In this document: positions 5,479-21,518 of the stretch, one piece after another
Numbering within the stretch: position 1 is the first letter of the stretch
Layout of the letters: each line of letters opens with the position of its first letter
Source: Singulisphaera sp. GP187
GTDB lineage: Bacteria; Planctomycetota; Planctomycetia; Isosphaerales; Isosphaeraceae
Reading direction: 5' to 3'
Assembly (NCBI RefSeq): GCF_900129635.1
Contig: NZ_FSRB01000002.1
Span: forward strand, 244,727-276,726
Length of the DNA stretch: 32,000 nucleotides
Notes under the pieces: model-generated
The model's database searches: none
What the model was told of the DNA's origin: nothing
What the model saw: only the letters and a program-made list of their open reading frames with translations
Made by a program: the position numbers and the translations under genes

Positions 5479-5510
5479 ACTTTAGCACAATCAGCCATAT
5501 CTTCAATCGA

Positions 5511-6353: not shown

Positions 6354-6354
6354 C

Positions 6355-7624: not shown

Positions 7625-8464
7625 ATGCCGAAGAGCAAGCCCCCCAAGGGCAAGGACTATCGCGTCCCGGCCGTCCGGCGCGCCTTCACGATCCTCGACA
7701 GCCTCAACCAGAGCTCCACGGGTCTGACGGTGCAAGAGGTGAGTCGGATCCACGCGATCCCGTACAGCACGGCGTTCTACCTGCTGGAGACGATGGAAGG
7801 CTGCGGCTACGCGAGCCGCGACGACGAGTCGAAGCGGTACAGCGTCGGCTATAAACTGCTCGCGATCCGGGAGAGCGGGGCGGCGAGACAGAACCTCAAC
7901 CTCCGCTCGCTCGCGCTGCCGCTGATGGAGGAACTGACCGAGGTCACCGGCCTGACCTGTCATCTCGCCACGCTCGAGAAGGATGAGGCGGTCTATATCG
8001 AAAAGACGGAACCGGCGGGCTTCATCCGCTTGAACACCTGGGTGGGCAAGCGGAACAGCCTGCACTGCACGGCGGTCGGCAAGGCACTCCTCTTGCAACA
8101 TAACCGGGAAGAGTTGCGCCTGCTCTTCGAAGCCGCCGGCCTGCCGCGTCGAACCGACCGGACGATCACGGATTTGCCCCTGTTCGCCGACGACTTGCTG
8201 GCTTCCTCCCGCCGCGGCTACGCCGTCGACGACGCCGAGGACGAACTCGAGGGCCGTTGCGTCGCCGCCCCGGTCCACGGCGACACGGGGAAGATCGTGG
8301 CCGCGATCGGCCTCTCGGGGACCTCCAACCAGATCGATCCCCAGCGGCGTGACGCCCTCGGCAAGCTCGTCCGGAACTACGCGAGGCAGATCTCCACCCG
8401 CCTCGGCTACGTCGAGGAAGGGGCTACGCGGCCAAGCTCCGAAGGGGCCTCGCCCCGAAGCTAG
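7625..8464 (+). CDS. IclR-family transcriptional regulator
   Basis: N-terminal wHTH (VPAVRRAFTILDSLNQSSTGLTVQEVSRIHAIPYSTAFYLLETMEGCGY) and a C-terminal IclR effector domain (GLTCHLATL..., GRCVAAPVH...AAIGLSG). Divergent from the dehydratase/lactonase pair with a 115-nt spacer. Confidence 0.92.
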   Translation: MPKSKPPKGKDYRVPAVRRAFTILDSLNQSSTGLTVQEVSRIHAIPYSTAFYLLETMEGCGYASRDDESKRYSVGYKLLAIRESGAARQNLNLRSLALPLMEELTEVTGLTCHLATLEKDEAVYIEKTEPAGFIRLNTWVGKRNSLHCTAVGKALLLQHNREELRLLFEAAGLPRRTDRTITDLPLFADDLLASSRRGYAVDDAEDELEGRCVAAPVHGDTGKIVAAIGLSGTSNQIDPQRRDALGKLVRNYARQISTRLGYVEEGATRPSSEGASPRS

Positions 8465-8495
8465 CCCGCAACTTGCAGCCCCAGAGGGGCGACCG

Positions 8496-8651
8496 TCAAT
8501 AGCCAGGGGTAGTTTTGCGTAGGCTGTGAACGGCTGCTGCGCGATTCGACGGTTGTGCATCCGGCTGGGGCGGCGGGTCGGCCTGGCCGATCGATTCCAC
8601 GGTTACCAGTGCGCACAGCGACAGAATACCCATCACGCGTATTGCACTCAT
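8496..8651 (-). CDS. possible small exported peptide (51 aa)
   Basis: ATG at 8651, 11 nt after the TAA (8663-8665) of the upstream gene and preceded by AGGGG. MSAIRVMGILSLCALVTVESIGQA|DPPPQPDAQPSN... looks like a signal peptide followed by a Pro-rich tail. It is short and weakly supported. Confidence 0.25.
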   Translation of the reverse strand: MSAIRVMGILSLCALVTVESIGQADPPPQPDAQPSNRAAAVHSLRKTTPGY

Positions 8652-8662
8652 CTCTTGCCCCT

Positions 8663-9850
8663 TTACTGAGTGGCTCCCGGGCTTTGCAAACCCTTGATCG
8701 TCAAACACGCCCAAGTTGCGTCGGCGATTTCGGTCCTGCCCCAGCACCAGGCCTGGACGAACGCCCCTCCGGCCGCCACGAGTGCGATGCCGCAGCCCGC
8801 GGACAGGAATTGGACAGCGCCGGTCAAGTCCCAAGCCGCCACGGCACCGAACCCAAGGACCGAGCCAAGAGCGACCAACGCGATCAGCAAGTTGAGCACG
8901 ATGGCCTTGGGCGGCGACTTCCGTGCCCAACACGCTCCCAACAGGGAATCTCGCAACTTGAAGTACAAAAGAGCGCTGGCGAATTGCCAAGGTGGAACGA
9001 CCACCAATAGCGCGAACGTAAGCCAGAGTGTTTTCATTCCGTGGGGTTGCCATCCATCAAGCGAGGCGACACCGGCGACCAACAGACTGCACACGATGGC
9101 GATGAGACAAAATGTTTGAGCCGCCAGTCGCAAGGAAAGTCGTGCGGCGGATTCGGGCGGCTTCCACCCGAACCTGCGTTCCAGATAGCAAGCGATTCGC
9201 TCGCTTGGCGGAAGAGTGGCTTCAAGTTCGCGGCCGAGTTCGGCAGAGTCTCCGAATCTCCGTGCGGCTTCGTTCATGGCGGTCACGCAGTCGTCTTCGC
9301 GGCTCAGCTCCTCCTCGACAGTCGATGCCAGATGAGCGAGAAGTTCCTCGCGGATTGTTCGCTTCCGCGACATGCTCGCTCGAATCGAGCGGACAGCGCT
9401 CTCAACAATCTTGTATTTCGATGCCATGACGTTCCTCACTTCCCGGCTCACCAAGTCCGGCTGGAGTCCTGCGTCTAAAAGGATCAGCGCCGCGACGCCA
9501 TCACGGTCATGAAGCAAACCGAAGAACAGGTGGTCGACGTCGGCAACGAGATCCAGGTTCGACGCGTCGCCGACGGCGTACTCGACGACCTGCTTGGCGC
9601 GTGGTGTCAACGATCGTTCGCCTGTGGAAATGGCGACCGGGTCGCGACCGACGCGATTCTCTACCTCCAGGCGAACCATCGCGAGGTCGATGCCGTGTGA
9701 CTTGAGGATTTTGGCGCCGACGCTGCTAGCGTCGTTGATCAACCCCAACAGAATGTGCTCTGTGCCGACGTGTTGATGCCCGAATCCCCGCGCTTCCTCG
9801 TCGGCCAACTTCATGACAGTTCGCGCCCGAGGCGTGAAGTTTTCAAACAT
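8663..9850 (-). CDS. membrane protein: ClpC-type N-domain (two Clp R repeats) + DUF1700/HAAS-like helical module + ~5 TM helices
   Basis: The N-terminus MFENFTPRARTVMKLADEEARGFGHQHVGTEHILLGLINDASSVGAKILKSHGIDL... follows the ClpC N-domain pattern. A second, degenerate repeat reads LTPRAKQVVEYAV...DHLFFGLLHDRDGVAALIL. RKRTIREELLAHLASTVEEELSREDDCVTAMNEAARRFGDSAELGRELEATLPPSER matches the 'permease prefix domain 1'/DUF1700 pattern. Hydrophobic helices run to the C-terminus. No AAA+ motifs. Confidence 0.85.
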   Translation of the reverse strand: MFENFTPRARTVMKLADEEARGFGHQHVGTEHILLGLINDASSVGAKILKSHGIDLAMVRLEVENRVGRDPVAISTGERSLTPRAKQVVEYAVGDASNLDLVADVDHLFFGLLHDRDGVAALILLDAGLQPDLVSREVRNVMASKYKIVESAVRSIRASMSRKRTIREELLAHLASTVEEELSREDDCVTAMNEAARRFGDSAELGRELEATLPPSERIACYLERRFGWKPPESAARLSLRLAAQTFCLIAIVCSLLVAGVASLDGWQPHGMKTLWLTFALLVVVPPWQFASALLYFKLRDSLLGACWARKSPPKAIVLNLLIALVALGSVLGFGAVAAWDLTGAVQFLSAGCGIALVAAGGAFVQAWCWGRTEIADATWACLTIKGLQSPGATQ

Positions 9851-9893
9851 GCTCGATTCTCCCGATTCGAGATCGCGATCAATGCAATCCGAC

Positions 9894-10247
9894 TCAGTTC
9901 GTGAGTGCCTGCGCCCCCAGAATTCCTCCGAGGGTATTCACAAACGTTTTCCATTCTTCGCGACATTGGCGCAGCTTCTGTTGACCCTTCGCCGTGAGGT
10001 GATAAATGCGTCGACGAGCGCCACGCCTTGCATGGGGCTGATTCTCCCACACGGCCTTAACTTGCCCTGCGGCTTCAAGCCGGTAGAGCGCGGGATAAAG
10101 TGACCCTTCCTTGAGCAGGAGAAGACCACAACCGGCCTCTTCCAATCGCCGAAGGATTTCCAACCCGTGCGCTTCGCCGCGTTCCAGCGTCGCAAGAATC
10201 AGGGCTTCAAGATGGCCCCTGAGCTTATCCCCGTTGATTGCTTCCAT
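9894..10247 (-). CDS. PadR-family transcriptional regulator
   Basis: LRGHLEALILATLERGEAHGLEILRRLEE...LKEGSLYPALYRLEAAGQVKAVWE...RRIYHLTAKG is the canonical PadR wHTH. It ends 43 nt upstream of the Clp-N/HAAS gene. Confidence 0.92.
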   Translation of the reverse strand: MEAINGDKLRGHLEALILATLERGEAHGLEILRRLEEAGCGLLLLKEGSLYPALYRLEAAGQVKAVWENQPHARRGARRRIYHLTAKGQQKLRQCREEWKTFVNTLGGILGAQALTN

Positions 10248-10349
10248 ACGATTATCCTAGACAGCCTAGGAATAGAATTCAAGGACAGCACCGGAAAAAT
10301 AACGAAGGCCGCCAGGCTGGATTTCGGAGAGCTTCCCAGGCGAAGAGTG

Positions 10350-10871
10350 CTAAGCCTTCCAGTCGGCCGCGGCGTGGCCCAACACTTCGGCCCGATGCTT
10401 CGCCGACTCGGAAAAGAGCGATTTCAGCCCATCATGCTGGGTCAATTGCCGATCCACCGTCTTCCGGAAGATCGGGTCCTGGATCTCCCGCCGAGCCGTT
10501 TCCAGAATCCCCTTGGCGCGATCCAGCTCCGCGTCGAAATCCCCATCGCTTACCTCGACCCGTTCCAGGACCTCCTGGTAGGTTCTGTTCGCCGCGATAT
10601 CGCGGTCCGCCGATGCGTTGAAAGCCTTCAGCCAGTCGGCGTCATGCATCGCGACCGACACAAGCTCGGTCGTGCCGGTTTCCCTTAGGGAGCCGTAGCT
10701 CTGGGAGGATTCCTCCTCGGCCCGTCGAACCCCGAAACCGTCCCATTCACGAGCCGAATCTTGACGGACGATGCGTGCAACTTGTGGTCCCTGCATTTTC
10801 GGATCGATGAAGAAATCGGGAATAATGTCGTAGGAATAAGCGATTTCGTTAAAGATTACATGAAATCCCAA
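10350..10871 (-). CDS. hypothetical protein (helical, no family recognised)
   Basis: 173-aa ORF with ordinary amino-acid composition, unlike the Arg/Pro-rich shadow ORFs. Same strand as the PadR pair. The first 25 codons lie in AT-rich DNA, so ATG 10796 (MQGPQVARIV...) is an equally plausible start. Confidence 0.5.
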   Translation of the reverse strand: MGFHVIFNEIAYSYDIIPDFFIDPKMQGPQVARIVRQDSAREWDGFGVRRAEEESSQSYGSLRETGTTELVSVAMHDADWLKAFNASADRDIAANRTYQEVLERVEVSDGDFDAELDRAKGILETARREIQDPIFRKTVDRQLTQHDGLKSLFSESAKHRAEVLGHAAADWKA

Positions 10872-10879
10872 TAATATAC

Positions 10880-12463
10880 TTGAGTCCGGCCCCGCCGCTG
10901 GTATGCATAATCATTTGCCACCAGCTATCTGACCGACCGCATGCCGGGGTCGTCGGGAGACCCGAGTTGCTATTCGATTTCGATGTCATCGTCGTCGGGG
11001 GCGGCGCGGGAGGTGCCACCTTCGCCTACGCGTGTGCACGGGCGGGGAAGTCGGTCCTGGTCCTGGAGCGGGGCGATCGGCAGACGGCCGGCGACCCGAG
11101 TTTCGACGAGAAGGCGGTTCTCATCGACAAGGGGCCGTACGACGACAGAGTGATCAAGCTCAACGGCCGGCCGAAGCGCCTGTATATGGGCGGCATCTTG
11201 GGCGGGGGAACGAGCGTGTACGGCGGTGCGCTGATCCGACCGAGCGAGCAGGACTTCCAGCCGGGGCGGTACTACGGCAAGAGGATCCCGAAGGCGATCT
11301 GGGACTGGCCGATCTCCTACGGGGACATGGAGCCGTACTATACCGAGGCCGAGCGGCTCTACGGCGTCACGGGCTGCGGGGAGGACGATTTTGGGCCGTT
11401 GCGCAAGCCGGCCCGGGGGTTCGTGGGGGAGCCCCTGCCCCTGCACTCGCTGAATCAAAGGCTCATCGCCACCAGCCGCCAGCACGGCCTGCATCCCTTC
11501 CGGCTGCCGATGGCGATCGATTCGTCGAAGTGCCTGCGCTGCGCCCTCTGCGCCGGCTTCGTCTGCCCCACCGGGGCGCGCGGCTCGGCGGCCCAACTGC
11601 TCGACTCTGCCCAGGACCAGGGTCTCGCACTTGAGGTCCAGACGCGGGTCGAGGTGGAGCGGCTGGCCCGGGAGCGCGGCACGGGGGCGACGGTGATCAC
11701 GGTGCTGGACCGCACCACGGGTCGGCGACGTCAGTACCGTGCCCGCCGCTACGCGCTGGCGGCGGGGGCGTTCGGGTCGCCGCTGTTGCTGCTAAGGTCG
11801 GGGATGACGCACCCGCTGATCGGGCGGAATTACATGCTGCACCTGTGCGCGATCGTTGCGGGCGTCTACCCCAGGGCGACGAGCGGCGACTTGTCGTTCA
11901 TCAAGCAGGTGGGCTTCTCGGACTACTATTTCGGCACGAAGGAGTATCCGCACAAGATGGGACTGGTGCAGTCGCTGGCGGTGCCCGGCCCGCTCATGGT
12001 GGCCAGGGCGTCGCCGTTCCTGCCCGCCGCGGTTCGGTTGTTCGTGCGGCAGAGGATGCTGCCGCTGGCGGGGATTATCGAGGACCTGCCCAACCCCGCC
12101 AACTGCGTGACCCTGGGGCCGGACGGGAGCGGGAAGATCACGCATCGGTACGGCAAGTATGACCTGACCCGGCGCAAGCACATGACCCCATACATCGCCC
12201 GGATCTTGCGGAAGTCGGGCGCGGTGTACTGCATCGCGCCGCGGTATTCGTCGCACGAGCACGTCGCCCACCAGTGCGGGACCCTGCGGTTCGGCACCGA
12301 CCCCACCCACGCCGTCCTGGACCCGGACTGCCGGATGTTCGCAAACCCGGACATCTTCGCGGTGGACGGCAGCTCCCTGCCGACATCGCTGGGGGTCGGG
12401 CCCGGGCTGACAATCATGGCCAACGCGCTGCGGGTGGCGTCCAAGGTGGTGGCCGAGCTATGA
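10880..12463 (+). CDS. GMC-family FAD oxidoreductase with a Cys-rich (Fe-S-like) insert
   Basis: FDVIVVGGGAGGATFAYACARAGKSVLVLERG dinucleotide-binding fold. The C-terminal GMC part reads HQCGTLRFG...DGSSLPTSLGVGPGLTIMANALR. CLRCALCAGFVCP motif. The start is uncertain. The track uses TTG 10880. TTG 10967 (M-LFDFDVIVVGGG) would leave a normal promoter spacer. Confidence 0.88.
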   Translation: MSPAPPLVCIIICHQLSDRPHAGVVGRPELLFDFDVIVVGGGAGGATFAYACARAGKSVLVLERGDRQTAGDPSFDEKAVLIDKGPYDDRVIKLNGRPKRLYMGGILGGGTSVYGGALIRPSEQDFQPGRYYGKRIPKAIWDWPISYGDMEPYYTEAERLYGVTGCGEDDFGPLRKPARGFVGEPLPLHSLNQRLIATSRQHGLHPFRLPMAIDSSKCLRCALCAGFVCPTGARGSAAQLLDSAQDQGLALEVQTRVEVERLARERGTGATVITVLDRTTGRRRQYRARRYALAAGAFGSPLLLLRSGMTHPLIGRNYMLHLCAIVAGVYPRATSGDLSFIKQVGFSDYYFGTKEYPHKMGLVQSLAVPGPLMVARASPFLPAAVRLFVRQRMLPLAGIIEDLPNPANCVTLGPDGSGKITHRYGKYDLTRRKHMTPYIARILRKSGAVYCIAPRYSSHEHVAHQCGTLRFGTDPTHAVLDPDCRMFANPDIFAVDGSSLPTSLGVGPGLTIMANALRVASKVVAEL

Positions 12464-13386
12464 ACACTCCGGGGAGGCCACCCGACACCGGCGCGCGGCG
12501 ACGCGCCTCAATCCAACGGGAGCAGTTCCGCCAGGCCCGGCGCATCCACGGCGGCCTGTGGGGTTTCTGCCTGGCGGTCCTGGGGGTGAAGCTCGCTCGA
12601 GTGCCGATCCCCTCGCGGCGACTGCGGCAGCGTCTGTTCCGAGACCTCTACGCGAGGATGTACCCGCCCGGGCTGGACGAGCAGGAGGCGGAGCGCCCGT
12701 TGGGGGACTACCCGACGTTCAACGCCCTGTTCACCCGGGGCGTGAAGCGCGGGCACCGGCCCATCCCCGCCGTCGGCTCGGACCTGCTGAGCCCGTGCGA
12801 CGGCACGGTCCAGGACCTCGGCCGCGTGGAGGGGGGACGGCTCCTCACGGTCAAGGGGACCGCCTACTCCGTCGAATCTTTGCTCGCCGGCCTGGACGTG
12901 CGACCGTACGAGGGCGGCCAGTTTGCAATCATCTTCCTGTCGCCGATCGACTGTCATCGCGTCTTCAGCCCGTCGGACGGGCGGATCGATGAGGCCGTCC
13001 ACGTCCCGGGGGCGAGACTGCTGGTCCACCCCCCGTGCCAGTCGCCCGAGTACCCGGTGTACACTTTGAACGAACGCATGATTCTGAGTCTCTCAACAGA
13101 CTCGGGGTCGTGCGCAGTCGTCCTGGTCGCAGGTTGGGGGGTGGGGAAAATCACGCTGCCCCTGGCGCCGGGATTTCGGCCGGGTTCGAGGCGGGTCGAG
13201 TCATACCGGTGGCCGTCTCCCCCGCAGGTCGAGCGCGGGGGCTGGATCGCGACGTTCGAGTTGGGCTCGACGGTCGTGCTGATCGCGTCGTCGTCGCCCG
13301 AGGCGACTCCCCTGGTCTCCCCGAACGAGAGGGTCCGCTATGGACAGCCCGTCTTTCGGATCGATCCCCACGGCCGCCCCGTCTGA
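12460..13386 (+). CDS. psd: phosphatidylserine-decarboxylase-family pyruvoyl proenzyme
   Basis: Track ORF 12274-13386. ATG 12460 overlaps the GMC stop (12461-12463) as ATGA. FLSPIDCHRVFSP matches the PSD YLSPxDYHRxH motif. ATFELGSTVVL contains the LGST self-cleavage site that generates the pyruvoyl group. Confidence 0.88.
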   Translation: MNTPGRPPDTGARRRASIQREQFRQARRIHGGLWGFCLAVLGVKLARVPIPSRRLRQRLFRDLYARMYPPGLDEQEAERPLGDYPTFNALFTRGVKRGHRPIPAVGSDLLSPCDGTVQDLGRVEGGRLLTVKGTAYSVESLLAGLDVRPYEGGQFAIIFLSPIDCHRVFSPSDGRIDEAVHVPGARLLVHPPCQSPEYPVYTLNERMILSLSTDSGSCAVVLVAGWGVGKITLPLAPGFRPGSRRVESYRWPSPPQVERGGWIATFELGSTVVLIASSSPEATPLVSPNERVRYGQPVFRIDPHGRPV

Positions 13387-15196
13387 CCGACGGGGGGAGG
13401 CCGGCGAGGTTCTCTGCGCGGCGGCCGGCCCCGAGCCGGCGGACCGGGGGGACGTCGTGTTCATCGCCGGCTTCGGAAGTGCGATCGCGGCGGACTTCGC
13501 GGCGTTTGTGGGCCGGGAGGCGCGGGTCGAGGTCGTGCCGGTGGACGACGAGGGGGGTCGCGGCCCGGCGAGCCTGGTCGTGTTCCTGCCCCCGAGCCTC
13601 GGCGAGCCCGGGCGGCGCAGGCTCGCGGAGTTGCTGGATGCCGCGGCTCGGCGGTCCGTCGGGTTCGTTGGGATCGTCGGCACCTTCCGGGTCCACCTCA
13701 ACGACCCGGTGGCGGAGGAGACGGAGCGGCTCGCGCTAGCCCTGGTCCGGTCGAGCGGCATCGCGGCCCGCGTCGCCGTCTTCCGGCCGGGTCTCGTGCT
13801 CAGCCCGAATTCAGGCGTGAGCCGGTGGCTGGGGCGCCTCGGTCCGCTGTTCCCGCTGGCCCCGGGGCGGCTCCGCACCTGCTTCATCGAGGGGGAGGAG
13901 CTCTTCGCGGCGATCGAGGCCGAGCGGTCGGGGGACGCCCGGCCGGGCGGGACAGGCGAGGTGGGACCGGCCGGGCGGGCCATGGGGCATCGCCGGAGGG
14001 CCTACACGTACCTGGGCGCGAACCTCGCCTGGCGCGAGGTGCTGGAGCGCCACCGGGGGACCTCCGCCGGGCGGCGGGTGGCGACGGCGGTCGCGCGAGT
14101 CCTCTCGTGGCTTCTCGCCGGGCAACTGGTGGCGCTCGCCGTGGGCCTGCTGTCGAGGTGGTTCCCGGGGGCGAGGCCCTGGTCGGTCCGGACTCTGAAG
14201 CCGCGGTCGATGCGCGAGATCGTCTCGCTCTGCCACGATGGGAATATCGGGCGCGTCCGGGTTGTGGGGTACAACAACGGCGTCAACCACTTCGGGCATC
14301 GGTACCCGGGAAGGACGATCGTCTCGACCGTCTGCTGTCGTCGGGCGGTCCACGCCGGGCCGAGGGTGTTGAAGGCGGATTGCGGCGCAACAATCCGCGG
14401 GGCGAGGGAATATCTGGGCGGGCGCGGCGAGGAGCTGTTCGTCATGCCCAATTACTCCTTCGTGTCGGTCGGGACCTCGTTCTTCGTGCCGATCCACGGC
14501 TCGTCCGTGGATTACGCCACGGTCGCGGACACGGCCTGCCGGGTGGTCCTGTACGACCCGAATTCGGATCGGATCGTCTCGGCCGGGCGGGACGAGGGGG
14601 CGTTCCGGGAGAACGTTTACAACCTACGGTCCCGCATGGTGGTCCTGCGGCTCTACCTGCGGACCAAGCCGAAGTCGACTTACTACGTCCGGCGCGAGAC
14701 GTGGAAGAACGCGGGGGCGGACGACCTGCTCGCGGCGCTCCGGGACCGGGACGCGGCAAACGTGGAGATCCGGCAGGCGCACGCGGCGAGCGACACGGTG
14801 ACGATCTCGAAGTACTACAACGAGCCGTCCGGGCCGTCCGGGCCCGCGCAGGAGTCGCCGCGCGACGCGCTAGGGCGGCTGTGGGACCGGCTGGAGGAGA
14901 ACCCGGTCACGTCGTTCCTGATGCACGCCCTGAGCCGGCACGTCGCCTGGCACACGGAACTGTTCCTCACGCCCGCCGAGTTCGAGCGGTTCTGGGCGAC
15001 GCACGCCGAGGTCGCCCTGCGAAAGATCCAGCTCCGCTACATCCGGCGCGACGGCATGCCACACTCGCCGTTCCGAGACGAGGACTGCGTCTCGGCCGAC
15101 CTGTTCCTGTTCCGGTTCGACAAGGCGGCCTTCGACGGCTACCTGGCGAAGAACCTCCCGAACGTCCGATGCAACCCCGGCAAACACAGCAACTAG
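13340..15196 (+). CDS. three-module protein: atypical Rossmann/SDR-like domain, TM helix, VAO/PCMH-type FAD oxidoreductase (ALO-like C-terminus)
   Basis: N-terminal module: DVVFIAGFGSAIAADF...VAVFRPGLVLSP (NAD(P)-binding-like). A hydrophobic helix follows: VATAVARVLSWLLAGQLVALAVGLL. The C-terminal module reads LKPRSMREIVSLCHDG...VRVVGYNNGVNHFGH...FFVPIHGS...NPGKHSN, resembling the FAD_binding_4 / arabinonolactone-oxidase type. ATG 13340 overlaps psd by 47 nt. GTG 13457 (M-FIAGFGS) is an alternative start. Confidence 0.75.
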   Translation: MDSPSFGSIPTAAPSDRRGEAGEVLCAAAGPEPADRGDVVFIAGFGSAIAADFAAFVGREARVEVVPVDDEGGRGPASLVVFLPPSLGEPGRRRLAELLDAAARRSVGFVGIVGTFRVHLNDPVAEETERLALALVRSSGIAARVAVFRPGLVLSPNSGVSRWLGRLGPLFPLAPGRLRTCFIEGEELFAAIEAERSGDARPGGTGEVGPAGRAMGHRRRAYTYLGANLAWREVLERHRGTSAGRRVATAVARVLSWLLAGQLVALAVGLLSRWFPGARPWSVRTLKPRSMREIVSLCHDGNIGRVRVVGYNNGVNHFGHRYPGRTIVSTVCCRRAVHAGPRVLKADCGATIRGAREYLGGRGEELFVMPNYSFVSVGTSFFVPIHGSSVDYATVADTACRVVLYDPNSDRIVSAGRDEGAFRENVYNLRSRMVVLRLYLRTKPKSTYYVRRETWKNAGADDLLAALRDRDAANVEIRQAHAASDTVTISKYYNEPSGPSGPAQESPRDALGRLWDRLEENPVTSFLMHALSRHVAWHTELFLTPAEFERFWATHAEVALRKIQLRYIRRDGMPHSPFRDEDCVSADLFLFRFDKAAFDGYLAKNLPNVRCNPGKHSN

Positions 15197-15203
15197 GCCA
15201 CAA

Positions 15204-17288
15204 ATGCAATCGCTACCCTCTGCGATCGAGACGCTGGAGTCGATGCTGCGTGAGCAGGAGCCGAACCTGCTCAGGCTCTACCTGAACCCGCACGTCGCCC
15301 AGGCCTGCTTCTGCCTCGACCGCTACGTCCGCACGACGTGGGCGGACCCATCGGGCCGCGCCGCGGGCGGGGGTGAGGAGTTCCAGTCGTTCCTGGCGAA
15401 CGGGCTCGATGAGGCACTCGGCGGCGCGATCAAGCTCGTAAGGTACAACCGGGGGGCGGTCGACGGCATCCGGGTCGGGCTCGTGCTCGACCCCGCTGAC
15501 CGCCTGGTCGGGTTCGCCGACTGGGACCTGACGGATGGGCGACGCGTCGAGTTCTTGCCGGGAGTGCGCGTGATCGGTCGTCGCGGTTTTGGCGAGGTAG
15601 CCGAGCGGCTCCGATCGGGTGATTTCGATGGGGTGGTGATCGATCCGCTCGTGCTGGTCACCGGGGATGACGGCCTCCTGGACACGCACGCGGAGGCGAT
15701 CGGGGAGCTCGTGCGTCGTCACAAGCCGGCCGTCGTCACGTGCGTCGATCGGGAGAGCCTGGCGCGCCTGCGGGGCGGGGCGCGGGGGGTCTTGCGCGAG
15801 GTCGTCCCCGACGTGGTCGTCTTTGACGAGTCGTTCGCCGGCCGCGCCGTCCCCTTCGGCGCCTTCACGGCCCGGCGGTCGATGTTCGCGGCCTGGAATC
15901 GAATGGGGAAGAGCACGTTCCATTCGACGACCTTCCAGCCGAATACGGTCTCGACCCGGCATTTCATGAACGTCATGGCGGCGACCGACCCGGGATTCTT
16001 CCGCCGTCATGCCGATGAACTGCTGGCGATTGCTGATAACCTCACCCGTCGGGGGGAAGCGTTCCGGCGTTATTACAACCCCTCGCTCTACCGGGTCATC
16101 CGGACCGCCGGGTTCGAGACGGCGGACGTACGGGCCGTCGGCAGCTCGGTCGTCGTCAACGGACGCCCCGTCCTCGATTTCGTGAGCGGCGTCGCGTGCA
16201 GCCTCCGCGGGCACAACCCATCGGGCTACGTGGAAGCTTTGACGTCTCCGGTGGGCGGCCTCGGTTCTCCCCAGGCCGAACTCCGGGATCGCCTCCGGGT
16301 CCTTACCGGCCTCGGGAACGTCCTGCCCGCGGTCAGCGGCGGCACCGCCGTCGAGAACGCGCTGAAGGCGGCCCTCGTCGCGCGGTTCCCCCGGCGGCAC
16401 GTCCTGGCGCTGAGGGCCGGGTTCGGGGGGAAGACGCTGTTCTCACTGACGGGGACCGCCAACCCCTCTTACAAGGAACGCATCGGCCCCCTGTTCGCCG
16501 AGGTACACTACGTCGACCCCTTCGCCCCTGACGCCCGCGTTCAAATCGACACTCTCCTGGATAGGCATGATTGCGCAGCAGTTCAGATCGAGCTCATCCA
16601 GTCGGTGGGCGGGGTCAGGCGCATCCCGGAGCCCCTGGTGCGCCACCTCGACGAGGGACGGAAACGCCGGGGCTACCTGCTGATCGTGGACGAGGTGCAG
16701 ACGGGCCTTTACCGGACCGGGCCGTTCAGCCAATCGCGCGTGTTCGGCCTGACGCCGGACGTGATGCTCCTGGGCAAGGGGACGTCGGACATGATGGTGC
16801 CCTTCTCCCTGACGCTCTACTCGGACGAGGTGGCCGAATCGCTCGCGGACCGTGGTGCGGGGCTGGTGGAAACGATCCGGGGGCATTACGGGTATGAGTT
16901 GGGATACCGGACCGTGCTCAACGCGCTCCGGGCGGCCGAGGAACTGGGGCTCGCCGGGCGGGTGGCCGAGGCCGGGTCGAGGTTCGAGCAGGCGCTCCGG
17001 GCCGGGCTGGCCCCGCTCAAGGGCGTGAGCGACGTGCGGGTCTTCGGGCTGCTCATCGCCATCGAGCTGGACGCGCGAGGGGGGCCGCGCCGTTGGCTGC
17101 GCAAGCGGCTCGGCGCGTCGTACCTGCTGGCCATGCTCCGGCACGAGCGATCCCCCGTATTGGCCGGCTTTTGTCAGTACGAGCCGAATACATTGAAGTT
17201 CACCCCGCCGTTGAACGTCAGCCCCGAAGACATCGACCGGGCCTGCGAGACGATCATCGACGTCCTGGGACGTCCGCTCCCCGAGTGA
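15204..17288 (+). CDS. class-III (PLP) aminotransferase with an N-terminal degenerate second copy of the same fold
   Basis: C-terminal ~390 aa: LDFVSGVACSLRGHNP, AVSGGTAVENALKAAL, LLIVDEVQTGLYRTG, PDVMLLGKGTSD (catalytic Lys). N-terminal ~300 aa align to the same blocks (LYLNPHVAQ, FLANGLDEALGGAIKLVR, VVTCVDRES, PDVVVFDESFAGRAVPFGAF, FHSTTFQPN) but have Glu at the Lys position. ATG lies 7 nt after the previous stop. Confidence 0.9.
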   Translation: MQSLPSAIETLESMLREQEPNLLRLYLNPHVAQACFCLDRYVRTTWADPSGRAAGGGEEFQSFLANGLDEALGGAIKLVRYNRGAVDGIRVGLVLDPADRLVGFADWDLTDGRRVEFLPGVRVIGRRGFGEVAERLRSGDFDGVVIDPLVLVTGDDGLLDTHAEAIGELVRRHKPAVVTCVDRESLARLRGGARGVLREVVPDVVVFDESFAGRAVPFGAFTARRSMFAAWNRMGKSTFHSTTFQPNTVSTRHFMNVMAATDPGFFRRHADELLAIADNLTRRGEAFRRYYNPSLYRVIRTAGFETADVRAVGSSVVVNGRPVLDFVSGVACSLRGHNPSGYVEALTSPVGGLGSPQAELRDRLRVLTGLGNVLPAVSGGTAVENALKAALVARFPRRHVLALRAGFGGKTLFSLTGTANPSYKERIGPLFAEVHYVDPFAPDARVQIDTLLDRHDCAAVQIELIQSVGGVRRIPEPLVRHLDEGRKRRGYLLIVDEVQTGLYRTGPFSQSRVFGLTPDVMLLGKGTSDMMVPFSLTLYSDEVAESLADRGAGLVETIRGHYGYELGYRTVLNALRAAEELGLAGRVAEAGSRFEQALRAGLAPLKGVSDVRVFGLLIAIELDARGGPRRWLRKRLGASYLLAMLRHERSPVLAGFCQYEPNTLKFTPPLNVSPEDIDRACETIIDVLGRPLPE

Positions 17289-17342
17289 TCGTCGCGGGGC
17301 TCGCTCACCTGTTGAGACCATCCCCAATCCGAAAGGCAGACC

Positions 17343-17876
17343 ATGAGCACAGGGACCGCCCGGCCGTTGAGCTTGCTTCACGTTGACTTCGAGGGCCTCT
17401 ACACCCGGCACCTCGGCCGGCATTCGCAGGCGGGCATCAACATCAACCATCTGCTCGCGCTCTCCATGCTTTGGTTCGGCGTCTACGCCTTTCTCACTCA
17501 GGGGGCGCGGCTCGTCGGCGTCCCATCGCCGTGGGGAGTGCCGGTGGGGCTGGCCGCGGCCTACTTGCTCGTCATCGGCATGCACTCGCCGCCCCGAGTG
17601 ATCCTCGCGACGGCGGCGTTCCTCGGTTTGCTCGTGGGGAGCGTCGTGGCGCTGCCGACGGTGCCGGGGTGGGCGGCCCCGCTGTTCCTCCTGCTGGCCC
17701 CGATCGGCTACAAAGTCCAGGCCTGGGGGCACAAGGTCTGGACGATCGCCGCGGACATGTCCGACTTCAACCGGCGCTTCCCGCCGGGGCGCGACCTGAA
17801 CCTCATCCTGCTGTTCTACGAGGTACCGGTCTGCCTGAACTACCTGGTGTTCCGCCCGAGGGACTGGAGGCGGTGA
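17343..17876 (+). CDS. DUF962 / Mpo1-like membrane protein
   Basis: Four hydrophobic helices. HSQAGININHLLALSMLWFG and YKVQAWGHKVWTIAAD resemble the His-containing DUF962 (yeast Mpo1/YGL010w family) motifs. 54 nt downstream of the aminotransferase. Confidence 0.75.
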   Translation: MSTGTARPLSLLHVDFEGLYTRHLGRHSQAGININHLLALSMLWFGVYAFLTQGARLVGVPSPWGVPVGLAAAYLLVIGMHSPPRVILATAAFLGLLVGSVVALPTVPGWAAPLFLLLAPIGYKVQAWGHKVWTIAADMSDFNRRFPPGRDLNLILLFYEVPVCLNYLVFRPRDWRR

Positions 17877-17910
17877 GCGGTCGCGCGACCGGCGCCGCCC
17901 GTCGACGGTC

Positions 17911-18723
17911 TCATCGCTTGCGGCCGAGCACGGCCACGATGTTGTGCGAATCCTGGACCGGGAAGACCAGGCGGTCGAGGGCCCAACGCTTGACCGACCC
18001 GGCGCGGTGCAGCCCGAGGCTCTCGATCAGGGGCGTCAGCCAGCCGCCGCGATAGCCGAACTCCATGAAGGTGTCGAAGTCCTCGAACGTCAGGGGCGGC
18101 TGGAAGGTCTCGGTCCGGATCACGTCGAGGCCCTGGGCGCCCATGACCTCGGCGACTTCGCGCTCGTCGGTCGGGTTCAGAACCGTGTCGTCCACCTGGC
18201 GCGAGCCGGCGCCGCTGAGCCAGCGGAGGAGTTTTGAATCCCCCTTCGCCTGCAAGGCCGGATAGGCCGCCCTCGTGCCGCCGACCAGCGACCAGTAGCC
18301 GCCGGGCCGGAGCTTGCGCGCGATTTGGGGTGCCAGCACGCGCATCGATACGAAGCCGGTGACGAAATGTGTGCAGACGCAGTCAAACTCCCGGCCCGGG
18401 AAAAAGGCGTCCAGGTTCGAGGCATCGCCGACCACCGCCTCCAGGCCCTTGATCCGCCGGTGCGCGACCTCCAGCATGTTCTCGGCAAGGTCGATCCCGA
18501 AGGGAACAATCGGGCTGCCGGACGCGAGCCGAAGCTTCTCGAGGAAGAGGCCTGTCCCCATGCCGACGTCGAGGACACGCAGATCCCCGCCGTCCAGCAG
18601 GCCTTCCTCCTTCATCTGGGCGATGCCGCGGTCGAGGGACCGCCCGATCACGCCCTGCGGATCGAGGTCGTAGTGGGTCGCGACGACGTCGTTGTAGGCA
18701 TGGTGGACCTCGGTCGTGCTCAT
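17911..18723 (-). CDS. class I SAM-dependent methyltransferase
   Basis: LRVLDVGMGTGLFLEKL (motif I), IVPFGIDLAENML and VGDASNL motifs. Its ATG (18721-18723) overlaps the upstream TGA (18720-18722) as ATGA. Confidence 0.9.
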   Translation of the reverse strand: MSTTEVHHAYNDVVATHYDLDPQGVIGRSLDRGIAQMKEEGLLDGGDLRVLDVGMGTGLFLEKLRLASGSPIVPFGIDLAENMLEVAHRRIKGLEAVVGDASNLDAFFPGREFDCVCTHFVTGFVSMRVLAPQIARKLRPGGYWSLVGGTRAAYPALQAKGDSKLLRWLSGAGSRQVDDTVLNPTDEREVAEVMGAQGLDVIRTETFQPPLTFEDFDTFMEFGYRGGWLTPLIESLGLHRAGSVKRWALDRLVFPVQDSHNIVAVLGRKR

Positions 18724-19571
18724 GGTGTGTCGTGGCCTCGGATAGGGAGAAGTCGGGTGGTCTGGGGAAACGAATTCGAAGGGTCGCGTTGAAGATCAGA
18801 CCGCGACCGCGACGACGGGGGGGGCACCGGGACGTCGGATGGCGTCGCCGTCGCGTGCGCGAGTTCCGAGGCGGCAGGCTCGTCGGTCGCGAGTGGCCAG
18901 GATTCCAGCCGGACCTCGCTGCCACGAACCGACACGAACGGGCAGGGTGGCTGCTCGGTCCACGTGCCGCTGTTGGCGTAGAGCACATCGCCCACCTGGT
19001 CGATGCCGGGCAGGTGGGTGTGGCCGCAGGTCACGTGGCGGAAGCCCTTCGACGCCGCGTAAGCGACGGCCCCGTCGCGGATCGAGACGCTGCTGCGCTG
19101 CCACTTCTTGGAGACCCGCCGGAGGTAGCGCGCGGTTTGGTGAGGCGCCCACTTCTGGACGTAGTAGAACAGACCGCAGGCGATCTCCGTCAGCCAGCCG
19201 TAGTCGTTGACGAAGCGGTCGAACTGGTCACCGTGGAGGGCGAGCAGATGGAGCCGGTCGTTTCGGAAGACGTACTCGTCGAGGACCTGGACGCCGACGA
19301 TGTGCCCGACGACGTCGGCGGGGCCGTCGTGGTTGCCGCGGACCCAGACCAGGCGGAGGTCGTCGCGGTCGGAGTTGCGGCGGAGGATCTTGAGGCAGGC
19401 GAAGTGCCGCTTCGAGAGCCGGTTGAAGTTGAGGTCGTCGAAGATGTCGCCGTTGATGACCAGCACGCCGGTGTTCTCGACCGCCCACTCGAGGAACTGC
19501 TCCAGGAGCACGGCCTGGCAGACGTCGCTGCCGAGATGCAGGTCGCTAATGACCAGGCAGTCGTAGCGCAT
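18720..19571 (-). CDS. LpxH-like metallophosphoesterase (UDP-2,3-diacylglucosamine-hydrolase family)
   Basis: Track ORF 18720-19742. ATG 19571 gives MRYDCLVISDLHLGSD. Further motifs: INGDIFDD, VRGNHD, LHGDQFD, CGHTHLP. This is the full calcineurin-type motif set in LpxH-like order. The upstream 57 codons are Arg/Pro-rich and were treated as non-coding. Confidence 0.87.
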   Translation of the reverse strand: MRYDCLVISDLHLGSDVCQAVLLEQFLEWAVENTGVLVINGDIFDDLNFNRLSKRHFACLKILRRNSDRDDLRLVWVRGNHDGPADVVGHIVGVQVLDEYVFRNDRLHLLALHGDQFDRFVNDYGWLTEIACGLFYYVQKWAPHQTARYLRRVSKKWQRSSVSIRDGAVAYAASKGFRHVTCGHTHLPGIDQVGDVLYANSGTWTEQPPCPFVSVRGSEVRLESWPLATDEPAASELAHATATPSDVPVPPPSSRSRSDLQRDPSNSFPQTTRLLPIRGHDTP

Positions 19572-19935
19572 CGGTGTCGCTCCCAACCTCTCACCGGGCC
19601 TGCAGTCGGGTGTGGCGGTCGTGACAGTCGCGTACCTCGACCATCCTCCTCGCCCCCGAGCCGGAGGCCGGAGTCCCGCCCTGCCCGCGATCCAGACGCG
19701 GGCACGCGGTGGGAGTATGACCGTCGATCGCCCGGATTCCAAGCGACTTGGTGATTACTCATGAAAGATTCACGACCTCTTCTTGTTACGGGGCATCTCC
19801 GACCCGGAACGCCGCGTCCGAACCACGTTTGACGAGGGTTCAGCGTCATCGACCGGTCGGTCCATGCCCCCAGCCGCGGTTGGGAAATCCTCGCGAAGGA
19901 TTGCCCCCGTCCTTCCGGCGAGAATTGCGGAAAGA

Positions 19936-19959
19936 GCCCGGCGGCTACGGCCGCCGGGC
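19936..19959 (-). terminator. putative intrinsic terminator hairpin
   Basis: GCCCGGCGGC-TACG-GCCGCCGGGC is a perfect 10-bp stem with a 4-nt loop. It starts 18 nt downstream of the stop of the 19977-20933 gene. On the transcribed strand it is followed only by a weak CTCTTTCC tract, so there is no clear U-run. Confidence 0.45.
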
Positions 19960-19976
19960 CTCGGAAGCAGGGGGCC

Positions 19977-20933
19977 CTATCCGAGCGTGGAGTCGATGAC
20001 GGCGAGCGACCTGCGGCCTGCGATGAAGTTCACGCTCGTCAGGCCCAGCATGCTGCGCAACTTCTCGGCCGGCACGTTCTTGATCGGCCCCGGACCGGCG
20101 GCCTGGCCTGGAGCCGGCTGAGGGAAGGCGGTCGATCGCGCCGTGTGGAAGGTGACGTTCCCCTCAACCTTCTGGAGGATCTGGTGGATGTGGCCGTTCA
20201 GCACGGTGACCGAGCCGAAGCGCTTCAGGTAGCTCAGCGCCTGCTGACCGTCCTCGGTGCCCCAGCCCCACTCGGGGTAGATCATCCAGAGGGGGACGTG
20301 GGCGTACACCACGATCGGCGTGCTGCTGGTGAGCCCCGCCAGGTCATTCCTGAGCCAGTCCAGTTGCTCCTTGCCCAAGACCCCGAGGCCCCCGGCCTTG
20401 AGGCCCAGACTCATGACGTTGACGAGACCGACGAAATGCACTCCCTGATGGTTGAAGCTCTGCCAGCCGGTGCCCATGGTCCCCCGGCCGAAACGCCTCA
20501 GGTACTGTTTCCCGTCGTCCGTGAAGACATCGTGTTCGCCGGGGACGTAGACGACCTGGCCGGCCCTGGCGCCCTTGAGGACCTCAGCGACGATGTCGAA
20601 CTCTCCGGGCTTCGAGAGATGGGTCAGGTCGCCGGTGTGGATCAGGAGGTCCGGTGCCCGTGGCAGCGTGTTGATCTTGGCGACCGTCTCCTGGAGCGTG
20701 GCGGTCACGTCCTTGTTTGTCTCCTTGGAGAACCCGATGTGGCTGTCGCTGATTTGGACGAACGTGAAATCGCCCCTCCCCTTCCGGTCGGGTCCCGCGC
20801 CGAACGCGCGGGACGAGAGGACGCCGCCGCTGACCGCCCAGACGAGGCCCGTGCCGGCCCAGGCCATGCATTCGAGGAACCCGCGACGGTCCACGCCGTC
20901 GCCCTCGTGATCTTGGTCGTTTTCATAGGGCAT
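19977..20933 (-). CDS. Tat-exported metallophosphoesterase
   Basis: Twin-arginine signal VDRRGFLECMAWAGTGLVWAV. Motifs: VQISDSHIGF, IHTGDLTH, VPGEHD, YAHVPLW, LNGHIHQ. Confidence 0.9.
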   Translation of the reverse strand: MPYENDQDHEGDGVDRRGFLECMAWAGTGLVWAVSGGVLSSRAFGAGPDRKGRGDFTFVQISDSHIGFSKETNKDVTATLQETVAKINTLPRAPDLLIHTGDLTHLSKPGEFDIVAEVLKGARAGQVVYVPGEHDVFTDDGKQYLRRFGRGTMGTGWQSFNHQGVHFVGLVNVMSLGLKAGGLGVLGKEQLDWLRNDLAGLTSSTPIVVYAHVPLWMIYPEWGWGTEDGQQALSYLKRFGSVTVLNGHIHQILQKVEGNVTFHTARSTAFPQPAPGQAAGPGPIKNVPAEKLRSMLGLTSVNFIAGRRSLAVIDSTLG

Positions 20934-20990
20934 GGATATGAATCCTGAGTGGTTGCTAAGAGTGAAGGTTTGAACTTGACATGGGCGCCG

Positions 20991-21431
20991 TCATCGCTTC
21001 TCGACGATGACCTGGCCCGACATCTTGGGATGGATGGTGCACACGTAGATATACGTGCCCGGATCGGCGAAGACATGCGAGTATTGGTCGTCGGTATCCA
21101 GAGCCTCCGAGTTGAGGATCTTGGGCTTGCCGGTGCTCGTCACCGTGTGCGGCATGTCGTCGTGATTGGTCCAGGTCACCTTTGTGCCGGCCGGGATGGT
21201 TAGAGTGCCTGGGGCATATTTGAAATTGTCGATTGAGATTTGCTTTGGTTCAGCACTCACCGGCTTGCCGGCACTCTCACCCGGAGGTGCATTGGCCGCC
21301 GTGTCACCACCGACGGGGATTGTCCCCCCGGCACTTCCGCCACAACCTGGAAGCATCACGCCCATCGGGCCCATCAGCGGGATGAGCACCAGCATCCTCC
21401 GCATCAAACTCGTCATCATGAGTCTCCTCAT
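20991..21431 (-). CDS. cupredoxin (amicyanin/plastocyanin-like blue copper) lipoprotein
   Basis: Signal peptide with lipobox MLPGC. Type-1 Cu ligands are His in NHDDMPHTV and C-T-I-H-P-K-M (compare amicyanin C-T-P-H-P-F-M). Confidence 0.9.
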   Translation of the reverse strand: MRRLMMTSLMRRMLVLIPLMGPMGVMLPGCGGSAGGTIPVGGDTAANAPPGESAGKPVSAEPKQISIDNFKYAPGTLTIPAGTKVTWTNHDDMPHTVTSTGKPKILNSEALDTDDQYSHVFADPGTYIYVCTIHPKMSGQVIVEKR

Positions 21432-21518
21432 CTCGGCCGAGACAATCTTGAGTGTCTCGATTCCTTGAACTCAGTACACCAGGTTCGCAACTCAAGAGGG
21501 GTTCGAGGGGGTGACGTG

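Follow-up and report, generated by a model that had tools for sequence, protein, structure and literature searches.

In the planctomycete Singulisphaera sp. GP187 we analysed a stretch of 32,000 nucleotides (nt) (contig NZ_FSRB01000002.1, positions 244,727 to 276,726; hereafter the window, in whose coordinates positions are given) that carries a compact gene cluster around a pyruvoyl-dependent enzyme of the phosphatidylserine decarboxylase (PSD) family. On its plus strand the cluster encodes an oxidoreductase of the GMC family, the PSD-family enzyme, a three-part protein (ORF3), an aminotransferase (AT) and a small membrane protein (ORF5); on the minus strand it encodes a methyltransferase (MT) and a metallophosphoesterase (MPE1). 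Starting from what is directly observed, namely the linkage of the genes, their folds and their conserved catalytic motifs, we propose, with somewhat less than even confidence, that these genes function as a unit in a pathway at the membrane, by which a lipid-bound head group (a sugar, a polyol or one of the glycerol type) receives an N-methylated amino group.

To examine synteny we ran an ORF3 profile against a genome collection in which each GTDB species has one member, and this gave 35 loci; protein look-ups added five further cluster loci (40 in total) and four loci of distant relatives. ORF3 is present in all 40 cluster loci, PSD and AT in 39 each, ORF5 in 36, GMC in 34 and MT in 32, and the absences fall mostly at contig ends. 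Wherever GMC occurs (34/40 loci), the order GMC-PSD-ORF3-AT-ORF5 is invariant, and the gene-neighbourhood conservation that the original prediction had put forward as a check is thereby borne out. The fixed set of seven genes that it assumed did not survive: the core consists of PSD-ORF3-AT-ORF5 and MT, while GMC is missing in several cyanobacteria and an MPE1 homologue lies near the core in 12 of the 40 loci, on either side and either strand, in four arrangements. MT stands near the core in 32/40 loci, with side and strand varying by lineage.

The hosts belong to the Isosphaeraceae, the Gemmataceae, the Tepidisphaerales (a different class) and the Planctomycetaceae, and there are cyanobacterial contigs of 35–44% GC, including Mastigocoleus, a metagenome-assembled genome from a Trichodesmium bin and TARA scaffolds. 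Identities across the loci fall to 36–56%, and the neighbours accompany psd in 40 loci of two phyla at 36–74% identity. The conserved gene order thus exceeds chance, and the distribution of the cluster is not patchy: entire planctomycete families have it in their conserved core. In 14 loci, none of them in the Isosphaeraceae, a GT4 glycosyltransferase gene lies inside the cluster; the NCBIfam models closest to it, neither of which reaches its cut-off, are those of GlcNAc-phosphatidylglycerol synthase and monoglucosyl-diacylglycerol synthase. No pssA adjoins the cluster in the neighbourhoods examined. A full-text literature search gave no description of the gene combination, in agreement with its earlier designation as undescribed. 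The parts come from known superfamilies and the operon is of the lipid/head-group kind, not a categorically new system; what is new, judged by sequence comparison, is two unannotated families (ORF3 and ORF5) and a divergent PSD subfamily.

The PSD-family proenzyme (12460..13386, plus strand) was correctly recognized at the outset as a family member with an intact LGST cleavage site. PF02666 (PS_Dcarbxylase) matches it with 149.6 bits (E 1e-43; gathering cut-off, GA, 22) and TIGR00163 with 127.5 bits (equivalog cut-off 111.75), and the E. coli PSD structures 7cnw/6l06 match at 3e-26. In E. coli PSD the residues D90 and D142-H144-S254 serve catalysis and self-cleavage (PMC7952604). Among 30 orthologues of the window protein, the LGS(T/S) site and the H144 equivalent are invariant, the D90 equivalent is kept throughout, with PCDG aligned to the PADG of the E. 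coli PSD alignment, and the D142 equivalent is Asp in 28/30.

The residues that contact phosphate present a different profile. When phosphatidylethanolamine (PE) is bound to E. coli PSD, its phosphate receives hydrogen bonds from the side chains of Tyr137 and Ser166, and across the family the Tyr137 position is occupied by Tyr in 85% and by Arg in 15% (PMC7952604). In the cluster enzymes both are replaced: the Y137 equivalent is Phe in 28/30 orthologues, with Tyr just in two cyanobacterial loci, and the S166 equivalent is Leu, Pro or His. In addition, the changes Tyr143-to-Cys and His147-to-Phe are invariant in all 30, giving the 'DCHRVF' signature by which we denote the subfamily. These altered phosphate contacts argue for a substrate other than ordinary phosphatidylserine (PS), and suggest a serine-like moiety without phosphodiester attachment. 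In E. coli PSD the Y137F variant keeps about 50% activity and the double mutant much less (PMC7952604).

ORF3 (13340..15196, plus strand) had been labelled a membrane-anchored Rossmann plus VAO-type flavoenzyme. The window protein itself matches no Pfam family up to E 10, either whole or as separated halves, and in this respect the label finds no support; it is upheld by the AlphaFold model, by Foldseek and by Pfam matches in distant homologues. In the model (pLDDT 75), residues ~39-230 form a degenerate extended-SDR-like (Rossmann-like) domain, residues ~243-281 two hydrophobic helices, and residues ~290-618 a VAO/PCMH-fold domain resembling DprE1, aldonolactone oxidase and alditol oxidase. 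Against the PDB, Foldseek retrieves for the C-terminal domain L-galactono-1,4-lactone dehydrogenase (8qnb, 3e-12), DprE1, alditol oxidase (2vfr) and D-lactate dehydrogenase; the matches to 8qnb, DprE1 and 2vfr have probability 1.0 and E 3e-12 to 1e-9 over ~370-430 columns. FAD_binding_4 (PF01565) matches some orthologues faintly. By profile search the family comprises 264 proteins among 1.84 billion representatives, with no tail into ordinary VAO enzymes. Its gene overlaps PSD by 20-47 nt wherever both were located, and in the cluster clade AT is invariably the next gene.

A distant ORF3 clade (19–23% identity) matches the Pfam models Epimerase and FAD_binding_4 and retains TGxxGxxG and YxxxK, the members with an intact SDR being P0438, P0439, P0442 and P0466. 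The cluster clade has lost both SDR motifs: its glycine loop shows no conservation, and an 8-residue deletion covers the position of YxxxK. A GT4 gene adjoins the distant ORF3 in 2/3 informative loci, and PSD, AT and ORF5 in none; one of the distant loci (L043, 3739-13359) reads FAAL-ACP-AOS, SDR, FAAL, ORF3-like, GT4, where AOS denotes an alpha-oxoamine synthase. By analogy with DprE1 and DprE2, we infer that the ancestral ORF3 was a fused oxidase/reductase acting on the sugar of a GT4-made glycolipid, and that the cluster clade, with its decayed reductase, hands the keto product on to the aminotransferase. We also observed that the distant genes (L041 10001-11872, L042 10001-11962 and L043 10001-12025, in the coordinates of their loci) join the intact extended SDR via membrane helices to FAD_binding_4, in the likeness of a single-chain DprE2-DprE1, and that the clade has GT4, a sulfotransferase, DUF2334 and a PEMT-domain protein among its neighbours.

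The GMC-family oxidoreductase (10967..12463, plus strand), which binds flavin adenine dinucleotide (FAD), matches both GMC_oxred_N and GMC_oxred_C, as its family label required. Its longest reading frame begins at TTG 10880, the start given in the original prediction; a second TTG lies 87 nt further in, and an in-frame ATG is absent. The true start is most likely TTG 10967, because the start codons of 30 orthologues sit 3-5 codons before the FAD-binding strand. In 25 orthologues the GxGxxG FAD loop (G9, G11, G14), the C-terminal active-site H433 and all four cysteines of a CxxCxxCx4CP motif are invariant. This motif is of the type that carries an Fe-S cluster, which is putative here, and its spacing differs from what we take to be that of FAD-glucose dehydrogenase. 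No cytochrome c or gamma-subunit gene was found within the cluster in the neighbourhoods examined. The closest solved relatives are the alpha subunit of FAD-glucose dehydrogenase (6a2u/8hdd, 1.5e-24), the large subunit of fructose dehydrogenase and 6'''-hydroxyparomomycin C oxidase; they are sugar oxidisers, among them an aminoglycoside 6'-oxidase partnered with an aminotransferase.

The class-III (omega-type) aminotransferase, dependent on pyridoxal phosphate (15204..17288, plus strand), keeps its earlier label: Aminotran_3 matches with 148 bits (3e-43), limited to residues 312-688. In NCBIfam it comes closest to the PigE aminotransferase domain and to ArgD/LysJ, the PDB matches are 1vef and PigE 4ppm, and the catalytic Lys525 and the DEVQTG motif (D496/E497/Q499) are kept in 25/26 orthologues. 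The first ~300 residues (15204-16100) match no Pfam family up to E 10 and may represent a decayed second aminotransferase half. A search for internal duplication between the N- and C-terminal halves gave nothing significant (BLAST E 0.55, hhalign E 0.08). The best of these non-significant internal alignments places 'PDVVVFDES' opposite the catalytic-lysine loop 'PDVMLLGKG', BLAST and hhalign choosing the same Lys-loop stretch.

In the window the 3' end of this gene is truncated by a frameshift. DNA alignment with Singulisphaera acidiphila and two other genera shows that one C has been lost from the run at 17279-17283, producing a premature stop. The displaced frame (17279..17386, plus strand), which we translate as PRVIVAGLAHLLRPSPIRKADHEHRDRPAVELASR and recognize from the tails of orthologues, still encodes up to 17386 the conserved tail of ~35 residues, PRVIVAGLAHLLRPSPIRK, and overlaps the start of ORF5. 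In 25 orthologues the tail is hydrophobic and basic, with a hydrophobic 'LLAAGLGGLL' stretch, and in at least 20 related loci AT overlaps the ORF5 start by 44 nt. The deletion is either a sequencing or assembly error or a very recent frameshift. The 54-nt spacer previously noted before 17343 is thus literally there, and is not ancestral but the product of the 1-nt deletion.

ORF5 (17343..17876, plus strand) is a small polytopic membrane protein with invariant H27, H36, H130, D138 and E160, and H23 in 29/30 orthologues. The window protein has no Pfam or NCBIfam match, none of its 129 homologues is annotated, and the all-helical model (pLDDT 92) has no counterpart in a fold search of the PDB (best E 0.95); by these comparisons ORF5 is a new family. 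Its former label, Mpo1/DUF962, counts as a weak hint. PF06127 stays below its 24-bit cut-off, while weak matches recur in one register in 4/23 homologues and in both cyanobacterial orthologues (best 15.8 bits, E 0.015), so that ORF5 may be a distant Mpo1-like metal-dependent oxidase.

On the opposite strand, the class-I methyltransferase (17911..18723, minus), which uses S-adenosylmethionine (SAM), matches Methyltransf_25 and Methyltransf_11 with an invariant SAM motif, as had been claimed. Its PDB relatives include bacterial PmtA (8ys9, 7e-7), the amino-sugar N-methyltransferase CalS10 and a phosphoethanolamine N-methyltransferase, and it scores 24 bits against the Legionella-type PmtA model NF045882 (cut-off 390), far below equivalog level. 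It is probably an N-methyltransferase. ATGA-coupled to it is the calcineurin-type phosphoesterase MPE1 (18720..19571, minus; Metallophos 5e-9). The superfamily part of its LpxH-type label stands, and the LpxH-type part does not (NF003743, 24.5 bits against a cut-off of 134). The DxH, GDxxD and GNHD motifs, invariant in 7 close orthologues, are generic metallophosphoesterase motifs alone, and MPE1 has no sequence relative in the PDB.

Several cyanobacterial loci carry additional genes for acyl chains. In L028 (Mastigocoleus), TE-ACP-AOS and SDR genes immediately precede GT4-PSD-ORF3-AT-MT-ORF5 and share its strand, and in L037 (8120-11986) and L038 a FAAL-ACP-KS-AT polyketide synthase (PKS) follows the cluster. 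No AOS, FAAL or PKS gene was found within 10 kb of the cluster in ~33 planctomycete loci. Taken together, the acyl-chain genes of the cyanobacterial-type loci, L043 among them, resemble a cluster not described before whose product would be a glycosylated long-chain amino alcohol, and such neighbours suggest that the lipid backbone may differ between phyla. The acyl-chain genes of L028 span 3106-9062 and include, besides TE-ACP-alpha-oxoamine synthase and SDR, a fatty-acid desaturase. An MFS transporter flanks three cyanobacterial clusters (L019 10146-12123, L039 10219-12196, L029 36-677), and a HAD-family hydrolase follows in two.

How the seven proteins might cooperate is constrained by the decarboxylase. 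A pyruvoyl decarboxylase needs amine and carboxylate on one carbon, and AT is the only amine-forming enzyme of the unit, GMC and ORF3 the only carbonyl-forming ones. On the most economical scheme, a vicinal hydroxyl/alcohol (or hemiacetal) pair bound to a lipid would be oxidised to an alpha-keto acid, which would be transaminated and decarboxylated before the amine is N-methylated. We infer the order of these steps and the intermediate alpha-amino acid, and likewise that the substrate is a lipid and which one it is. A hydroxylated head group would be presented on a membrane lipid, attached in many lineages by the cluster GT4, and the acceptor may be released beforehand by the metallophosphoesterase in some planctomycetes. 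The Fe-S-type GMC enzyme would act on the carbon of a primary alcohol or of a hemiacetal, oxidising it in the direction of a carboxylate or a lactone, and the flavin domain of ORF3 would convert a neighbouring secondary hydroxyl to a ketone. Because the SDR half of ORF3 has decayed, this ketone would not be re-reduced as in DprE1/DprE2 epimerisation; AT would aminate it to a lipid-bound alpha-amino acid, the PSD-family enzyme would remove the carboxyl group and the PmtA-like methyltransferase would methylate the amine. ORF5 could serve as a membrane metallo-oxidase or scaffold, and we assign it no step. In a sugar version, the glucose-1-dehydrogenase-like GMC and the aldonolactone-oxidase-like ORF3 would, by analogy, fit the formation of a 2-keto-aldonate; the chemistry of a glycerol version, from glyceryl via glycerate and hydroxypyruvate to serine, is equally consistent.

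A lipid substrate is favoured by the GT4 genes and by membrane features of four proteins: hydrophobic helices in ORF3, a polytopic ORF5, the hydrophobic tail of AT and a PSD family that is monotopic at the membrane (PMC7952604). The lipid reading of the original prediction is accordingly carried by GT4 in 14 loci, the DprE1-like fold of ORF3, these membrane features and the PmtA-like MT, whereas the Mpo1 and LpxH precedents on which it also drew are weak. Its GnnA/GnnB precedent for oxidation plus transamination involves different enzyme families; closer ones are DprE1/DprE2 and the NeoQ/NeoB-type pair of GMC oxidase and class-III aminotransferase.

A number of observations weigh against the proposed pathway. 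The PSD enzyme exceeds the NCBI equivalog cut-off for phosphatidylserine decarboxylase, and E. coli Y137F retains ~50% of its activity (PMC7952604). Extracts of S. acidiphila show phosphatidylglycerol (PG), phosphatidylcholine (PC), ornithine lipids and methylated ornithine lipids, which are otherwise explained. The window ORF3 matches no Pfam FAD model, and its FAD binding is read from the fold. We know of no lipid in these organisms that needs such a pathway, and the aldehydes or ketones that class-III aminotransferases act on usually lie far from any carboxylate. We therefore only assume an alpha-amino-acid intermediate, so that PSD has a substrate. The anomeric carbon of a glycoside is blocked, which makes it hard to see how an alpha-amino acid formed from a sugar would stay tethered. 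GT4 is absent from the Isosphaeraceae loci, the window included, and some cyanobacterial loci lack GMC and stand beside FAAL/PKS and alpha-oxoamine-synthase genes, neighbours that hint at a non-glycerolipid backbone.

As to the product of the proposed pathway, a phosphorus-free analogue of PE or PC, for which a serine-like unit would be assembled on a sugar carried by a lipid and would there lose its carboxyl group and be methylated, is decidedly unlikely as a specific guess. One candidate may be a betaine lipid of the diacylglyceryl-carboxyhydroxymethylcholine (DGCC) type, whose biosynthesis genes are not known (PMC10685587). It would arise from a uronosyl- or pentosyl-diacylglycerol (DAG) by ring oxidation, C4 amination and C2-C3 cleavage, and the intermediate DAG-O-CH(COO-)-O-CH2-CH(NH2)-COOH would pass to PSD and then to the methyltransferase. 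A second candidate may be an N-methylated aminopentanetetrol-type head group, for which C1 of a sugar would be oxidised and the 2-keto- and 2-amino-aldonate formed in turn before decarboxylation. To our knowledge no biosynthetic pathway for aminopentanetetrol lipids has been described, and our literature search gave none.

The cyanobacterial neighbours fit a different backbone, that is, a long-chain amino alcohol, alkylamine or sphingoid-like lipid instead of a glycerolipid head group, which we consider unlikely but still worth serious attention. Here a 2-amino(-3-hydroxy) fatty acid would be supplied by ORF3 and AT, from a 2-hydroxy or 2-oxo acid, or by AOS; PSD would convert it to a long-chain amine, followed by N-methylation and glycosylation. 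TE-ACP-AOS and SDR upstream of the cluster in L028, the FAAL-ACP-KS-AT PKS in L037 and L038 and a distant ORF3 relative amid FAAL-ACP-AOS, SDR, FAAL and GT4 are all consistent with this, as is a PSD without phosphate contacts; moreover 2-hydroxy fatty acids are the substrates of Mpo1, the one characterised protein to which ORF5 may be related. The absence of AOS, FAAL and PKS genes from the surroundings of the planctomycete clusters is difficult to reconcile with it, however, the closest relatives of GMC and ORF3 act on sugars and not on fatty acids, and a single 2-hydroxy to 2-oxo step would not call for two oxidases.

Somewhat further down we place a synthesis of serine on the lipid itself, independent of PssA, in which the free glycerol of PG (or another glyceryl-terminated lipid) would be turned into PS, PE and PC. 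GMC and ORF3 would oxidise it via glycerate to hydroxypyruvate, AT would form PS, PSD would give PE, and MT would give monomethyl-PE (MMPE), dimethyl-PE (DMPE) and PC. This rather unlikely route would let PSD, which exceeds the TIGR00163 equivalog cut-off, perform its canonical reaction, and would mirror the soluble phosphoserine pathway. PG is universal, cyanobacteria included, MT resembles PmtA, and PE, MMPE, DMPE and PC have been reported among four wetland planctomycetes, Singulisphaera included. Oxidation of an alcohol to the acid in two steps is known from GMC enzymes, choline oxidase for example, and D-lactate dehydrogenase, a 2-hydroxy-acid dehydrogenase, is among the fold matches of ORF3. 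The replaced phosphate-contact side chains of PSD (Phe for Y137 in 28/30) speak against it, as do the recurrent GT4 and the cyanobacterial FAAL/AOS neighbours, which it leaves unexplained. Cyanobacteria, furthermore, are not known to make PE or PC, and ORF5 and MPE1 would have no role.

The original prediction had listed a small-molecule amine pathway as an alternative, and the membrane features and GT4 make it the less likely one. Such a soluble pathway, leading to a methylated amino-polyol, an osmolyte or an alkaloid-like product, would have PSD act on a free amino acid. Precedent exists in fungal PsiD, a PSD-family enzyme that decarboxylates a free amino acid, and a PSD-family enzyme of A. 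oryzae reportedly decarboxylates arginine; two cyanobacterial loci have MFS transporters and a HAD phosphatase at their flanks, and the PKS neighbours suggest secondary metabolism. We nevertheless regard it as very doubtful: PSD, ORF3, AT and ORF5 have membrane features, GT4 is nearest to lipid glycosyltransferases, DprE1 is the best analogue of ORF3 among lipid-linked systems, and the cluster belongs to the conserved core of planctomycete families, unlike patchy natural-product clusters. Plain housekeeping, with psd making PE, the methyltransferase PC and the other genes being unrelated but tightly packed neighbours, is highly improbable, for although PSD exceeds the equivalog cut-off, MT resembles PmtA, PE and PC occur in these bacteria and tight packing is common in bacterial genomes, the same neighbours recur in 40 loci of two phyla while downstream genes differ between near-identical strains, no pssA is adjacent, the PSD subfamily is distinct (Y143C and H147F invariant, Y137F in 28/30) and low-GC cyanobacteria carry the gene set.

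Two further links were considered. A connection to ornithine lipids, suggested by the likeness of AT to acetylornithine aminotransferase and by the trimethylornithine lipids of Singulisphaera, was rejected; the genes concerned (Sinac_1599-1601) lie elsewhere in the genome, and an acylated ornithine offers PSD no free alpha-amine. Tailoring of the hopanoid side chain, ribosylhopane being a lipid-tethered reducing sugar, was an idea alone, with no hopanoid genes nearby.

Returning to the proposed head-group pathway, we compared it with characterized systems. With the PssA/Psd/PmtA route it shares a pyruvoyl proenzyme with the LGST site and D/D-H-S residues, a PmtA-like class-I SAM methyltransferase, and decarboxylation followed by N-methylation of an amino head group. 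It differs in the lack of PssA, in the coupling of PSD to two flavoenzymes, an aminotransferase and a new membrane protein, in the replaced Tyr137 and Ser166, and in its occurrence also in cyanobacteria. Like the mycobacterial decaprenylphosphoryl-ribose 2'-epimerase DprE1/DprE2, it pairs a VAO-fold flavoenzyme with an SDR at the membrane, and the GT4 neighbours of the ORF3 family point to chemistry on lipid-linked sugars. ORF3, in contrast, is one polypeptide with membrane helices between the activities and, in the window, no Pfam FAD_binding_4 match; the cluster-clade SDR lacks the NAD loop and YxxxK, and an aminotransferase is its invariable neighbour, so the keto intermediate is presumably aminated instead of reduced. 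ORF3 appears to be a natural epimerase-type oxidase/reductase fusion whose reductase half decayed once the aminotransferase took the keto intermediate.

The pair of NeoQ/LivQ 6'-oxidase and NeoB-type transaminase likewise combines a GMC enzyme with an omega-type aminotransferase to convert a sugar hydroxyl via a carbonyl to an amine, NeoB being the transaminase partner in aminoglycoside biosynthesis. That system is soluble, acts on a pseudo-oligosaccharide and includes no decarboxylase, VAO enzyme or membrane protein, whereas the cluster GMC has an Fe-S-type Cys motif like those of membrane dehydrogenase complexes. In erythorbate/ascorbate-type oxidation, glucose oxidase or dehydrogenase and aldonolactone oxidase oxidise C1 and then C2. 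The solved structure nearest to GMC is a glucose 1-dehydrogenase, and the folds nearest to ORF3 are aldono-1,4-lactone dehydrogenases; by this analogy of fold and family alone, GMC and ORF3 would convert a sugar to a 2-keto-aldonate, an alpha-keto acid that could be transaminated and decarboxylated. The cluster would need a lipid-tethered sugar with a free anomeric carbon, of which none is known, and its amination, decarboxylation and methylation have no counterpart there. Finally, PlcP-Agt remodelling under phosphate limitation also joins a metallophosphoesterase to a GT4 lipid glycosyltransferase, a likeness by enzyme class, and in BtaA/BtaB betaine-lipid synthesis, as could happen here, SAM-dependent N-methylation gives a phosphorus-free, choline-like lipid. 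The cluster has no BtaA, and neither system has anything that corresponds to its steps of oxidase, aminotransferase and decarboxylase.

PSD is usually viewed as a one-substrate housekeeping enzyme, and the cluster ties a distinct PSD subfamily to oxidases, an aminotransferase and a methyltransferase. If the proposed pathway is true, an amino or choline-like head group would be built on the membrane by oxidation, amination and decarboxylation, without serine import through PssA, which would be a new pathway type in bacterial lipid biosynthesis. It would also give a function to the two unannotated families, ORF3 and ORF5, and provide candidate genes for nitrogen-bearing, phosphorus-free lipids that are detected but unassigned in environmental lipidomics. 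Were the product DGCC or an aminopentanetetrol lipid, these would be the first enzymes for those lipids, and the PSD fold would be used on a non-phosphate substrate.

The anatomy of the locus was also examined. Codon-position GC plots confirm coding for all seven ORFs in the frames originally claimed, with strong signals at third codon positions (GC3 0.8-0.97) and frame switches at the junctions. The close packing described earlier is likewise seen in the sequence: the ATGA overlap of GMC stop and psd start at 12460-12463, the 47-nt overlap between the PSD stop at 13386 and the ORF3 ATG at 13340, a start supported by M1 and the 'MDSPS' motif in 19 homologues, the 7-nt spacer between 15196 and 15204, the convergent gap of 34 nt (17876/17911), and, on the minus strand, the ATGA at 18720-18723 and the phosphoesterase ATG at 19571. 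A promoter and terminator scan of 9800-21600 gave nothing exceeding shuffled background.

The closest relative compared is S. acidiphila DSM 18658 (NC_019892.1, ~5.13-5.15 Mb), in which ORF3 and its neighbours have 93–98% protein identity. Downstream of MPE1 the genes differ even from this strain (96% amino-acid identity), and upstream only a PadR/Clp_N pair is common to both, ~2 kb farther from GMC in S. acidiphila; we therefore delimit the predicted unit at GMC to MPE1, ~10967-19571. Beyond MPE1, S. acidiphila has AraC/DJ-1, HD, a hypothetical gene and an IS4/5 transposase (L001 16200-21854), whereas the window (19977-24434) has a second, CpdA-like metallophosphoesterase (MPE2) and then a 971-residue protein with PAP2, TIGR03118 (PEP-CTERM-associated) and NHL domains. 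By this comparison the border on the MPE1 side is a strain-level rearrangement. Both MPE2 (19977-20933) and the PAP2/TIGR03118 protein (21519-24434) were rejected as cluster members, being absent from all 40 related loci, S. acidiphila included.

GC content across the window is 57–73%, and a DUF1559/N-methyl protein at 180-1355 is a planctomycete hallmark. Genes for a GT87-like and a GT2 glycosyltransferase (2738-5478) lie ~6 kb upstream of the cluster, an adjacency that is not kept in other loci. The region 8500-10900 has lower GC (57–59%) and encodes a Clp_N-domain protein, a PadR regulator and ORFs without assignment. The distance from PadR to GMC is ~0.7 kb in the window against ~2.7 kb in S. 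acidiphila (L001 3300-7600), which therefore points to an indel of ~2 kb just upstream of the cluster.

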